A DNA stretch of 64,000 nucleotides from Candidatus Latescibacterota bacterium (GTDB lineage: Bacteria; Latescibacterota; CBDEFO01): assembly GCA_965248755.1 (NCBI GenBank), contig OZ252149.1:1920001-1984000 (forward strand), in the 5' to 3' direction. The notes below the pieces were generated by a model. The model made no database searches. It had not been told where the DNA came from and was given only the letters and a program-made list of their open reading frames with translations. Below are positions 3,588 to 63,217 of this stretch, piece after piece (the first letter of the stretch is position 1; each line of letters begins with the position of its first letter). The translations under genes were made by a program, and so were the position numbers.

Positions 3588-3792
3588 GTCCCCGAGTGCT
3601 TCTATCGGGGACGTGTGCCTACCCCTGGGGCGAGTGAACCTCGCCCCTACATTCTATCTACTCAAAAGAGATTGCTTCGCTTCGCTCGCAAGGACAATTC
3701 ATTTTACCAAGGTCATTGCGAGGGGGCCTGCCCCGGAATGATTGATCCCCGAGCCCCCCGATAGATTCAATCGGGGGTTAAGTCGCAATCTC
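3588..3792. repeat. Intergenic repeat cluster: two 21-bp hairpins, a GTAG-type REP and GAGATTGCTTCG/GTCATTGCGAG elements
   Basis: ccccgagtgcttctatcgggg 3590-3610; ggggcgagtgaacctcgcccctac; gagattgcttcgcttcgctcgcaa; ccccgatagattcaatcgggg 3756-3776. Confidence 0.8.
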
Positions 3793-11125: not shown

Positions 11126-11346
11126 AGCAAACAGTAGACAGCAAACAGGAAAGAGGCAGTCTAAATCAGATTGTCTCGCCCACGTCGCGGCCTGGTGGTA
11201 CCCCAGCAAAGCGGCCACGGCGCTGCGCCCCTTCGTTCTGACTACAAGACATGTCCCCGATTAAACCCCTGATTGACTCTATCGGGGGTTGGGGGCAGCG
11301 AAGCAATCTGGTGGGAGGGGAGACGCGGCCTGTCTACTGTCTACTC
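11126..11346. repeat. Inverted heptamer-repeat element (AGTAGAC...GTCTACT) enclosing nested 21-bp hairpins
   Basis: agcaaacagtagacagcaaacag at left, ctgtctactgtctact at right, ccctgattgactctatcgggg at 11267-11287. Confidence 0.7.
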
Positions 11347-19245: not shown

Positions 19246-19410
19246 AGTCAGTAGACAGGGAATCGCCTTTCCTCCAAGCCCTCATTGCGCAAGCCGTCAT
19301 TGAGAGGGGCTTCATCCCTCTTGGTCATTGGAGAGGGGCTTCAGCCCGAATGATTCTATCGGGTCTTCATCCCGAAGCAATCCCCGACCCCCGATACAGT
19401 CAATCGGCGA
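19246..19410. repeat. Intergenic repeat cluster (heptamer arm, GTCATT..GAGGGGCTTCA..CCCGAAGCAATC and two 21-bp hairpin variants)
   Basis: Shares sequence with 833-986; hairpins at 19344-19364 and 19389-19409. Confidence 0.75.
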
Positions 19411-37677: not shown

Positions 37678-39449
37678 ATGGAGAAAAGCTATTTCAAACT
37701 TTATATAAGGCTCGTAAAGGAATTTCTACTTCCATATTGGAAGGCTATAGTCACCGCGCTTGTGTGTATGATCTGTATATCGGGGCTGAACGTGATTCCG
37801 GCTCTATCGGTAAAGTTTCTGATCGACGATATTATTCCCGATAAGGATTTGACTTTGCTCGGTCTCCTTGCCGGGGGTCTTGTTGTAGCCTATACTTTGA
37901 GGGCCATCACCGAGTTCGGTCAGGATTATCTAGCTCACAGGGTCGCCGAACAGGTGATGTTCGATCTGAGGGTGCAGGTATACGGACACGTTCAAAAGCT
38001 TTCGTCCAATTTCTTCAGGAACAGGCGCACAGGTGAGATCATGTCGAGGATAATCAACGACATCGATTCTCTAAGGGATATGTTAGCTCACAGCGGTGAT
38101 GCCATTGTAACTCAGAGTTTGAATGTTTTAGTCGTGGCTGCGGTTCTTTCAAACTCCAATGGAAACTTGCGCTCTTTACGTTGATTCCAATTCCTCTCAC
38201 TATCATTTTGGTCCTCTACTTTAATAAGGCTGTGCGTCAGGTGTACCAAAATGTGCGGGAAAAACTTGCGGACGTAAACGCACGGCTTCTGGATAACTTA
38301 TCGGGGATAGAGGTTATAAAGTCGTTTGTAATGGAGAGGCGGGAATTGAACAGATTTGCAGCGGAGAGCAAAGACTATTTCAATGAAAATATGGTAGCTA
38401 TAAAGCTATGGGCATATATATTTCCGACTATGATATTTGTCGTGGGTATTGGATCAGTGATAGTGATTTGGTACGGCGGAGGTCAGGTTATAAGTGGGGA
38501 GCTTACTGTGGGTGGCCTTGTAGCGTTTTCCGCTTTGGCTTGGAGGCTGTACTGGCCCCTTATGGACCTAGGTAGAGAGAACGAGAAGATTCAAAAGGCG
38601 ATGGCGGCTGTGAAGAGGATATTTGAGCTTTTAGATACCGAGCCTGAGATAAAGGACTCGCCTTCAGCGGTGGAGCTTACCCACCCCCGATTGAATCTAT
38701 CGGGGGTTAAAGGGGAGATTGAGTTCCAGGGAGTCTCGTTTGCTTACGACAGGGATTACGTTCTCAAAAATATAGATCTGAAGATCGAGCCTGGGGAAAT
38801 CATCGCACTTGTGGGTCCAAGCGGTGTGGGCAAGACTACTCTGGCGGGATTGATCCCGAGGTTCTACGATCCCGATGAGGGCACGGTTTCGATATACGGT
38901 ATAGACATTAAAGGGATAAAGCTTGAGTCCTTGAGGAGCAATATCGGGATTGTGCATCAGGAGACGTTTCTTTTCAATGGGACGATAGCAGAAAACGTAG
39001 GCTACGGGAAGATAGGAGCTACATTAGACGAGGTAGTTGAGGCTGCAAAGGCGGCGAATATATACGATTTTATATCCGAACTCCCCGATGGGTTTGACAC
39101 TGTGGTGGGAGAAAGAGGAGTCAAACTTTCCGGGGGACAGAAGCAGAGGATAGCTATCGCAAGGGCTATTTTGAAGGATCCGCCCATACTGATTTTAGAT
39201 GAGGCGACTTCATCTGTGGATACGGAGTCGGAACAGCTTATACAGCAGAGCTTGTCTTTCCTTTTGAAGGACAGGATGACCCTCATAATCGCTCACAGGT
39301 TAGCCACGATCAAGTCAGCCCACAGGATAGTGGTCTTAAAGGATGGAGAGATAGAGGAGATAGGGTCTCACTTCGAACTGATAGATAATGGCGGCGCATA
39401 CAGCCGCCTCCACGATGCGCAGTTCGGCAGCCGAGAAGCGGTGGAGTAG
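37678..39449 (+). pseudogene. MsbA-like ABC exporter (TMD+NBD), frameshifted near 38148
   Basis: ORFs 37678-38184 and 38181-39449 join if one T is restored (AVLFKLQWKLALFTLIP); GPSGVGKT, LSGGQKQR and LILDEATS. Confidence 0.85.
38685..38705. repeat. 21-bp hairpin inserted in frame in the ABC gene
   Basis: ccccgattgaatctatcgggg encodes PRLNLSG within ELTH|VKGEIEF. Confidence 0.85.
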
Positions 39450-45429: not shown

Positions 45430-45650
45430 TGGCATAGAGTGTGGCCACTGCAAGCTGACGGTGCGTGAGGAATTGCCGGGGCAACAAAAAGGTCGTAGGT
45501 GACCTTGCCATCCCCGATCGATTCTATCGGGGAAGAACTTTTTGGGGGACAAAGGAATTGGAGGTCTTAAAAAAAGCCGTGGCAGATGATAAAAGCGGAA
45601 AAGTAAAGATCACTGTCGAAAATGAAGGTGCTCCTGACGCAGATCTAATT
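45430..45650 (+). pseudogene. Gene fragments (HMA-like CGHC segment, then a short ORF carrying a 21-bp hairpin)
   Basis: SGIECGHCKLTVREELPG; hairpin 45512-45532, whose removal restores LAIRTFW. Confidence 0.3.
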
Positions 45651-46800: not shown

Positions 46801-47187
46801 GGTACTGCATAACTAAGGTTGCACTAATTTAGCTCTTGGACAGCTTATTGATAGAGTAGTTTTCTAATAAGTGGAAGGAGATTTTCGTGGCGATGGTTGA
46901 AGCGCCACTCGAGTTCTTTAAGATAAAGGTGGAAGTAGTTCTTGTCAATACCTCCCCGATAGAATCAATCGGGGATCGCTGGTAAAGCCAGTGTTTGGCA
47001 TATGACCAGAAGCCTTCCACTCCATTGAGGTGATCTCTTCCTTTAGCTATTCCTTTCTCTTTGGGCACTACCACATGATTGCCACTGATAGAAAGGGAGG
47101 CATAGGCTATCCAATCAACAGTATAATATAAGCTCCCTGGTTTGGTGTGTTGGGCAATAAGAGGAAGCAGTGACTTTCGACTCCTTG
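46801..47187 (-). mobile_element. IS1595-family (ISXO2-like) remnant: transposase 3' part and right end
   Basis: HLNGVEGFWSYAKHWL then, frameshifted, FHLYLKELEWRFNHR; end ttagttatgcagtacc; truncated by IS256. Confidence 0.85.
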
Positions 47188-48534
47188 GGGTGTGTAAGGA
47201 AATTTGTGTAAATGGGGAAATGAGTTATATTAGTTGGCCACCATTTACATAAGGAGTTCTTACATGGACAAGCTAGACCCGAAGTTGATTGATGAGCTTT
47301 TGAAGGACTACAAGAAGCCGGAAGACATAATTGGTGAGGAAGGTCTTTTGAAGCAGTTGACGAAGGCGATTCTTGAGCGGGCTCTGGAGTCAGAGCTTAC
47401 GTATGAGTTAGGCTACGATAAGAGTTCTCCAGAAGGGAGGAACAGCGGTAATTCGCGCAACGGTAGGAGCACAAAGGGATTGAAGACAGATTATGGTGAT
47501 CTGGAGATATCGGTGCCACGGGATCGGAACAGTCAGTTTGATCCGCAGATAGTGAGGAAGGGGCAGAGGCGATTTACAGGTTTTGATGATAAGATACTGT
47601 CTATGTATGCCCGAGGGATGACCACACGTGATATACAGGCTCATTTGGAGGAGATATACGGTGTAGAGGTGTCCCCTGATTTGATATCGACTGTGACCGA
47701 TGGGATCATATCAGAGGTGAAGCAGTGGCAGGATCGTCCTTTTGAAGGGGTGTATCCCATAGTATTCTTTGATTCTCTGGTGATGAAGATTAGAGACGAA
47801 GGCCGGATCGTAAACAAGGCGGTGTATCTTGCGGTAGGGGTCGGTCTGGATGGGATGAAAGACGTTTTGGGTATCTGGATTGCAAAGAGCGAGGGGGCGA
47901 AGTTCTGGCTGCAAGTTTTCACGGAGCTTAAGAATCAGGGGATGAACGATGTGTTGATAGCTTGCGTGGATGGTCTCCAGGGTCTTCCAGAGGCTATTGA
48001 ATCCGTATTTCCCCAAGCAGAGGTCCAGCTCTGTATTGTCCATGTGGTGAGGAATTCCTTGAAGTTCGTGTCGTATAAGGACCGTAAGGAGATTGCCGCC
48101 GACCTCAAGAATATATACCGAGCCCCCACGGTAGAACAGGCTGAAGAGGCCCTTGGAGATTTTCAGGAGGCTTGGGACAGCCGTTATCCGATGATAAGTA
48201 AATCGTGGCAGAATAACTGGTCTCGGATCATCCCGTTTTTCGCCTACTCTGAAGAGATCCGAAGGGTGATCTATACCACAAACGCCATCGAATCGCTTAA
48301 TAACTCTCTACGGAAAGTAATAAAGAACAGAAATAGCTTCCCAAACGACGAGGCAGCGATTAAGTTACTCTATATGGCACTCGAGAATATCAAGAAAAAA
48401 TGGACGATGCCGATCAGGAACTGGAGCTTGGCCATTCACCAATTCTCCATCCACTTCGAGGGGAGATTTGGTATAGAATAAGCCGAAAAGGGTACAGAAG
48501 AAAATCCCATTTACACAAAAAAACTGACAGACCC
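47188..48534 (+). mobile_element. IS256-family insertion sequence
   Basis: 29-bp imperfect terminal IRs gggtgtgtaaggaaatttgtgtaaatggg / rc gggtctgtcagtttttttgtgtaaatggg; no target duplication. Confidence 0.92.
47264..48481 (+). CDS. IS256-family transposase
   Basis: VPRDR, MYARGMTTRD, FFD, CVDGL, QLCIVH and YTTNAIES; AAGGAG RBS. Confidence 0.95.
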   Translation: MDKLDPKLIDELLKDYKKPEDIIGEEGLLKQLTKAILERALESELTYELGYDKSSPEGRNSGNSRNGRSTKGLKTDYGDLEISVPRDRNSQFDPQIVRKGQRRFTGFDDKILSMYARGMTTRDIQAHLEEIYGVEVSPDLISTVTDGIISEVKQWQDRPFEGVYPIVFFDSLVMKIRDEGRIVNKAVYLAVGVGLDGMKDVLGIWIAKSEGAKFWLQVFTELKNQGMNDVLIACVDGLQGLPEAIESVFPQAEVQLCIVHVVRNSLKFVSYKDRKEIAADLKNIYRAPTVEQAEEALGDFQEAWDSRYPMISKSWQNNWSRIIPFFAYSEEIRRVIYTTNAIESLNNSLRKVIKNRNSFPNDEAAIKLLYMALENIKKKWTMPIRNWSLAIHQFSIHFEGRFGIE

Positions 48535-62773: not shown

Positions 62774-63217
62774 CTTGTTCATCACCAGCTAACCATAAAT
62801 GCCTTTCGGTCAACTGTATGGCATTGCGGCTAACGTCTTAAGATACCCACCTTGGCTCGCCAGAGTTGCCGGGAGGCGCAGCGCCTGTCGTCGAAGCCGG
62901 AGAGAACCTGGTGAGCTTCACCTGCGACGTTCGAGGGGACATCAATCCGCGAGCCTTTGTGACAGTAATCAGCCGGGGTGAGTCGCTATAGAAACTTCTT
63001 GAATATTCCCTTAACGTTCTGTGAAAAAGTTTTGGCATAGGTGGTCGCAGAGCCTTCACTCCCTGCACTGAGCCAGATGTGCGAAGCGTTTTCCAGGTGT
63101 CTGAGAAACTTTCTCACATAATCTGTCCTAATCATTCCTCTGTCTCAATCATTCCAAGGAGGCCTGCCCCCGATTGATTCTATCGGGAGGGTTGCTTGGC
63201 GTCGCTGGCATTGACAG

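Follow-up and report, generated by a model that had tools for sequence, protein, structure and literature searches.

The window, a stretch of 64,000 nucleotides from a Candidatus Latescibacterota bacterium (contig OZ252149.1, positions 1,920,001 to 1,984,000), contains a gene for an ABC exporter that carries within its reading frame a short palindromic sequence, further copies of which are scattered through the rest of the window. The features are as follows:

37678–38184, + strand: ABC exporter, 5′ part (first half of ABC_membrane; out of frame past the missing T; from the ORF, Pfam and comparison with the sister genome G001)
38146–38147, + strand: frameshift; a T that G001 and runs X5, X9 and X11 have is missing (from allele comparison)
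38181–39449, + strand: ABC exporter, 3′ part (remaining ABC_membrane, linker with the insert, ABC_tran; from the ORF and Pfam)
38684–38706, + strand: putative 23-nt hairpin unit, in which a C and a G enclose the 21-nt core; translated in frame to PRLNLSG (from pairing and homologue alignment)
45512–45532, + strand: second copy (2 mismatches), in a ~65-bp composite repeat, overlapping a doubtful 79-codon ORF and shared with G001
3590–3610, + strand: further family copy (3 mismatches)
3756–3776, − strand: further family copy (exact)
11267–11287, + strand: further family copy (2 mismatches), with flanks that resemble pieces of an older copy
19389–19409, − strand: further family copy (3 mismatches)
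46954–46974, − strand: further family copy (1 mismatch)
63168–63188, + strand: further family copy (2 mismatches)

The order of the Pfam domains, ABC_membrane followed by ABC_tran, is the TMD-NBD architecture of MsbA/Sav1866-type ABC exporters, although the protein is not MsbA itself, because it scored below every NCBIfam cut-off among the 25 models listed. In the genome under study (G000, 4.54 Mb) the gene is split by a missing T behind position 38146, which the initial annotation had missed. The T is likewise missing from a contig of run X1 (a run that may be the source data), whereas G001 (a sister genome of the same genus) and runs X5, X9 and X11 have it. Since G001 encodes an intact 591-amino-acid exporter with the insert included, the frameshift appears to postdate the insertion and to be either a recent change or an error. 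Of 575 codons, 29 differ synonymously and 16 non-synonymously between the G000 and G001 alleles, counts that would fit purifying selection on the exporter with the insert in place. Because the G000 allele is frameshifted, the case that the insert is tolerated rests on these relatives.

The 21-mer (CCCCGATTGAATCTATCGGGG) is located at 38685–38705 and adds seven codons in frame, PRLNLSG (residues 169–175 of ORF 38181–39449), between ABC_membrane, which ends at residue 125, and ABC_tran, which starts at residue 195, just as the initial annotation had proposed. The same annotation had predicted that homologues would show a gap exactly there, and this was borne out: all 118 other database homologues (120 hits minus the G000 and G001-type proteins) lack the insert, 45 of them being shorter by 7 residues than the insert-bearing exporter and 73 by 8, and a gap of ~7 residues lies at this point in each of 13 aligned paralogues and distant relatives. 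The closest homologue lacking the insert is 54% identical and shorter by 7 residues, such that the net gain at this site is +7 codons against the closest homologues; identities in the protein database drop from 97% straight to this 54%. The insert is present in G001 and in contigs of runs X5 and X9, and we found no empty allele in G001, X5, X9 or the protein database, with a metagenome scan for one returning distant matches only. That PRLNLSG is a real insertion into the exporter is almost certain. A single-sequence structure model of the exporter was unusable (pLDDT 38), and the domain boundaries are the basis on which the seven-residue loop is predicted to be exposed. Taken singly, the insert is an unremarkable case of a flexible linker gaining a short loop, and the family from which it comes is more useful than this one instance.

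Within the window we found 13 strand-matches to the 21-mer at ≤3 mismatches (8 sites), compared with 0.00 in 100 shuffles. The whole of G000 has 105 exact copies and 530 at ≤3 mismatches, spaced with a median of 5.1 kb and with 21 of the 529 gaps shorter than 100 bp. At ≤1 mismatch there are 313 copies in G001 versus 293 in G000, and none in the other 39 genomes searched; a looser core was absent from 164 of 168 genomes of the phylum and present as one copy each in two, placing the amplification in a single genus. Among the matches listed, exact copies also occurred in Deltaproteobacteria-labelled sequences, in Thermodesulfobacteriota and in one Nanoarchaeia MAG. The core was present at 7 viral loci, and the loop motif TG..TCTA was kept across unrelated phyla. 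An Rfam search with the hairpin gave no match of weight.

Tracts of GTAGACA-type 7-mers lie near 95 of the 530 copies, and 112 of the 530 have a GTCAT/GAAGCAATC-type repeat no more than 45 nt away, so the hairpin unit does land in CGTC-type repeats. These repeats are themselves a second family in G000 (~200 GTCAT[TC]GCGA words and 267 GAAGCAATC[TC] words), which often hosts the hairpin. In other genomes, small hairpins of unrelated sequence are found inside CGTC-type repeats (L085, L274 and L267), which suggests that there are more families of the same kind. The ~65-bp composite repeat that contains the hairpin at window positions 45487–45553 occurs at 4 places in G000 in all, so some copies spread inside larger units. 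The initial annotation had put forward this copy (45512–45532) as a second protein insertion because its removal keeps the frame, as does removal of any 21-mer. It is a poor example, since the 79-codon ORF over it has no Pfam match, the GTG start of that ORF is GGG in G001, and the copy is part of the composite repeat.

We then considered where the unit ends. The bases flanking the 21-mer pair with each other, as T-A in 250 of the 530 copies and as C-G in 159 of the 530, and the next pair outward is R..Y, which is mostly non-complementary. Because pairing extends just outside the 21-mer and mostly stops there, we took the unit to be 23 nt (Y + 21 + R), and the C and G flanking the 21-mer at the exporter site most likely belong to the element, which at 38684–38706 would form an 8-bp stem with a 7-nt loop.

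Sites that are occupied in one genome and empty in the other gave the net gain. The comparison covered 2.8 Mb of G001 (out of 4.6 Mb) against G000 and anchored 243 of the 530 copies in G000 and 229 of the 334 in G001. The flank filter retained 384 of the 472 anchored rows. Of these, 227 were shared and 65 (64 of them unique) lay within the −6 to +8 base window, with the caveat that some G000/G001 partners may be paralogous repeats. At the 64 unique polymorphic sites the net gain was +19 (24 sites), +27 (11 sites), +18 (9 sites), +20 (7 sites) or +21 (4 sites), with others at 9 sites and no site at +22 or +23. For a 23-nt unit, +19 corresponds to the loss of 4 target bases and +27 to a 4-bp duplication. 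A uniform target-site duplication does not describe these sites, because a 4-bp duplication accounts for 11 of the 64 and target loss is found at most others.

The flanks of the 530 copies told a similar story. In 20 copies the 23-mer lies between perfect direct repeats of 4 nt, against an expectation of 3.2 from shuffling (maximum 9 of 300). Every one of the 20 has the form Y-N-N-R, and at the 21-nt boundary only 4 such repeats are found. For 3-nt direct flanks the count was 45 against 12.7 expected, an excess that combines true 3-bp duplications with cases in which 4 bases were lost inside 7-mer tracts. Where one copy is nested in another, the inner one takes the place of the same 4-mer of the older copy (TCTA/TAGA, in both orientations) in 30 of 45 cases, which sets the direction of change for this class as insertion. 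At three of the 24 "+19" sites, clean insertion or excision of 19 nt would explain the difference just as well. We consider it quite probable that the family consists of a 23-nt unit with two footprints.

Copies inside genes sample these outcomes through a filter. Using our own rough gene caller (3,233 genes), which makes the division into gene and non-gene partly circular, we found copies at least 60 codons inside called genes in 44 cases out of 530, versus 285 expected. A total of 106 copies lie in ORFs, 33 of them with coding-like sequence on both sides. The net size was a multiple of three at 13 of 18 polymorphic sites in genes versus 13 of 46 outside (Fisher p = 0.002). This enrichment of in-frame sizes inside genes implies that the frame is kept by selection and not by design, and, together with the scarcity of copies deep in genes, that the in-frame loops are what selection lets through. 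Four of the six frames of the unit are open, giving the consensus peptides PRLNLSG, SPIESIG, SPIDSIG and PDRFNRG, and the other two contain a stop. For nine in-gene copies with a paralogue (the exporter included), the paralogue showed a 7-residue gap in five cases, a 9-residue gap in two and an ambiguous one in two. The proposal in the initial annotation that the element creates new peptide loops thus holds in that seven residues were added here and other ORFs have been entered, although the in-frame copies look like survivors of selection. An in-frame copy therefore says little about the element's true size, since the outcomes that survive in genes are the minority whose size is divisible by three.

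Relatives of the hairpin core in other genomes offered a clue to its origin. In one genome (G075), the core CCCGA-NTGNN-TCTATCGGG occurs 56 times, each time with a GTCA tag and as one continuous ATTCCC...GGGAAT stem; a GTCA tag is found on 10 of 93 copies in G041 and, directly 5′, on 1 of 530 in G000. Tagged relatives of the core occur in 10 of 96 genomes of another class, and in other genomes the core is also found as GTCA-tagged, CCA-tailed repeats beside small GIY-YIG genes. At one G075 locus (L258) the core hairpin lies directly upstream of a GIY-YIG gene whose product is 71% identical to a 94-amino-acid GIY-YIG protein of G001. The G001 gene forms a cassette (L243:1415–1765, on G001:C4) in which it sits between inverted GTCATTCCC...GGGAATCCAG hairpins, an order of hairpin, gene and hairpin that Chenal et al. 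(2025; PMC11893778) describe for Ssn nucleases. The loop of these nuclease-flanking repeats differs from that of the hairpin unit. The cassette has no BLAST match in G000, though its neighbours match.

The class to which one carrier MAG belongs has relatives of the G001 GIY-YIG protein in 27 of 96 genomes, and visual inspection of 30 such loci showed GTCA-tagged hairpins beside the gene in nearly all of them. Genomes with the core had an Ssn-like gene in 9 of 21 cases versus 18 of 75 for those without it (p = 0.10, with related genomes not independent), a weak co-occurrence. The published SRM pattern, as coded in our analysis, matched none of the 530 G000 copies; because it also missed the tagged forms and matched only 7 of the 30 Ssn-like loci, the pattern is narrow. 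The junctions between tag and stem and between stem and tail (A|T...A|T) coincide with the inferred ends of the unit. Since the unit equals the tagged repeat minus its tag and tail, descent of the hairpin from tagged (CGTC-type, Ssn-associated) repeats seems likely on these sequence comparisons.

We searched the genomes for a mover. G000 (98% complete) and G001 (96%) had no match to Y1_Tnp, the RAYT/IS200 domain, and eight Y1_Tnp loci from other carrier genomes had no copy of the hairpin unit. Ku was not found in G000, a protein search of G000 returned no Ssn-like gene (its sole GIY-YIG match lay in a 608-amino-acid frame), and a pattern search of the viral contigs returned no Ssn relative. 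G000 does have two reverse transcriptase genes (C1:3677786–3679310 and near 3731598–3733370) and one four-helix-bundle gene (PF05635, C1:2579539–2579850), none of them bracketed by the hairpin unit. The four-helix-bundle gene has an internal stop and adjoins 7-mer tracts of CTACTGT; G000 contains the word GTAGACAG 677 times. An element with ~85 copies in G000 (the first near 289340 of C1) has overlapping ORFs of 119 and 316 codons, and from this layout we take it to be IS3-like; its left end, the one IS end compared, does not resemble the hairpin unit. The window itself has a Mutator/IS256-family transposase at 47187–48481, which may be strain-specific because similarity to G001 stops at 47187.

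On balance we favor an account in which a family of 23-nt hairpins of Ssn-associated origin is captured at staggered breaks, with the exporter copy being one that was tolerated. A 23-nt hairpin fragment of single-stranded DNA would be taken up where the two strands are nicked ~4 nt apart, around a Y-N-N-R 4-mer, after which end trimming would yield +19 and fill-in would yield +27, with a wobble of 1–2 nt giving +18, +20 and +21. The exporter copy would then represent the rare +21 outcome (23 nt in exchange for 2), fixed before the split between G000 and G001 and probably kept because the linker tolerates seven more residues. An Ssn-type single-stranded-DNA nuclease, acting in trans or since lost, could supply either the hairpin fragments or the nicks. 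That an enzyme of this type is the mover is a tentative suggestion and somewhat doubtful. The Neisseria enzyme SsnA cuts upstream of the tag and needs bases before the palindrome and a C after it (PMC11893778), so the bare unit is not a described SsnA substrate. In a bolder version, Ssn-type GIY-YIG nucleases would move CGTC repeats and shed a minimal 23-nt hairpin that spreads by itself across phyla, integrating at 4-nt staggered breaks with mirror-image results, 4 bases being either lost or duplicated. This version strikes us as unlikely; if true, it would amount to transposition by nuclease and repair with no transposase, and to a steady source of protein loops of 6, 7 and 9 residues.

The initial annotation had envisaged a precise 21-bp insertion into ACGT-like sites that makes 7-residue loops by design, in keeping with the net +7 codons relative to the closest exporter homologue, the 7-residue gaps in five paralogue comparisons and CG being the commonest center of the empty 4-mers. 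As the mode of the family, it is highly improbable: +19 and +27 dominate, the net gain was +21 at 4 of the 64 sites with none of these clean (the two replaced bases equal the end bases of the unit in 0 of 4), and the bases flanking the 21-mer covary as a base pair. With so few +21 sites and none of them clean, the ACGT empty site that had been read out of the exporter is unsupported.

Other explanations dispense with a GIY-YIG nuclease and keep the footprints. Type II topoisomerases leave 4-nt 5′ overhangs, and host repair or replication might capture hairpin single-stranded DNA with no dedicated enzyme, at 4-nt staggered breaks of the topoisomerase or restriction type or through template switching with 1–2 nt of microhomology; nearby templating would then close the end pair, and the mobile core might measure 21 nt, its insertion duplicating 6 bp or deleting 2 bp. 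Compatible with this are the lack of RAYT/IS200 in both genomes and of Ku and Ssn-like genes in G000, the occurrence of both trimmed and filled outcomes, and the 13 of 20 duplicated copies in which the 5′ end base of the unit equals the base after the duplicated 4-mer. The conservation of the TG..TCTA loop motif across unrelated phyla, however, suggests recognition by a protein, and the limitation of the amplification to one genus among the 168 genomes also speaks against repair acting unaided, which we regard as rather improbable. Another possibility is an independent mini-element moved by some other transposase, such as the ~85-copy IS3-like one, with the tagged forms representing landings in CGTC repeats. 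Duplications of 4 bp suit several DDE families, and the 112 copies near GTCAT/GAAGCAATC-type repeats are in accord with such landings, but loss of target bases is the most frequent footprint, the IS3-like element's left end is unlike the unit, and the G075 copies are all tagged, each making up a single continuous stem. We therefore give this possibility very little weight, and return to capture of an Ssn-associated hairpin at staggered breaks as the reading that we prefer.

The spread of tiny palindromic repeats such as CGTC REPs, SDRs and RPE-like elements is a wider question, to which this pair of genomes brings dozens of before-and-after sites. Two footprints and a favored 4-mer emerge from them, along with a link in sequence to Ssn-flanking hairpins, and therefore the question can be tested with a 94-residue enzyme and short oligonucleotides. 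We found no published description of the hairpin family or of such footprints in a literature search that left subscription journals outside its scope, and the supplements of PMC3733652 and PMC11893778 could hold the family. A search of the same scope returned only Chenal et al. on repeat-flanked mobile GIY-YIG genes, and nothing on in-frame hairpin insertions in Patescibacteria.

The nearest known systems are the CGTC-tagged REPs (Di Nocera et al., 2013; PMC3733652) and the NTS/SRM repeats with their Ssn GIY-YIG single-stranded-DNA nucleases (Chenal et al., 2025; PMC11893778). The accessible part of the former reports intragenic GTAG and CGTC REPs, the idea that insertions into linkers are neutral, and no dedicated transposase; that of the latter raises mobility of an NTS-ssnA-NTS cassette as a hypothesis only. 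As described there, CGTC REP/SRM repeats resemble the G000 family in being short GC-rich hairpins with hundreds of copies, some inside ORFs. They have a tag and a tail, whereas the G000 unit is tagged in 1 of 530 copies and has no conserved tail; their loop is 4–5 nt on an 8–9 bp stem, compared with 7–9 nt on an 8-bp stem here; and, unlike them, the G000 hairpins are mostly single and have measured footprints. REP/REPIN-RAYT systems, as far as the portion available of PMC3116915 describes them, share the character of non-autonomous hairpins thought to move as single-stranded DNA, but the G000 family has no GTAG tag and no regular doublets, and neither G000 nor G001 has Y1_Tnp. The hairpin unit works like such elements, yet it departs from defining features of the CGTC REP/SRM repeats, of REPINs and of classical MITEs.

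The Nostoc SDR families that Elhai and colleagues reportedly described in 2008 are said to be 21–27 nt long and to lie within 7-mer tandem repeats, other repeats and coding genes. Size is one likeness to our family, and the 7-mer tracts near 95 of the 530 copies are another, likened by description only. The accessible accounts of SDR5 of Nostoc punctiforme give it 21 nt, a mover and a function that are unknown, and a precise insertion into HIP1 (PMC4390886, PMC5861425, PMC13756078), whereas the G000 family replaces or duplicates ~4 bases. Rickettsia palindromic elements are ~150 bp, with nearly half in ORFs (PMC10969869, PMC3733652, as far as these were available), and the analogy drawn to them in the initial annotation is fair: in both cases a dispersed palindrome contributes in-frame residues to unrelated proteins and is absent from their homologues. 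The Rickettsia elements encode a conserved peptide at that length, whereas the unit described here is 23 nt, is read in four frames as four peptides, and has ~6–8% of its copies deep in genes. Palindromes inside genes were thus already known; in this family, four target bases are usually swapped out or duplicated.
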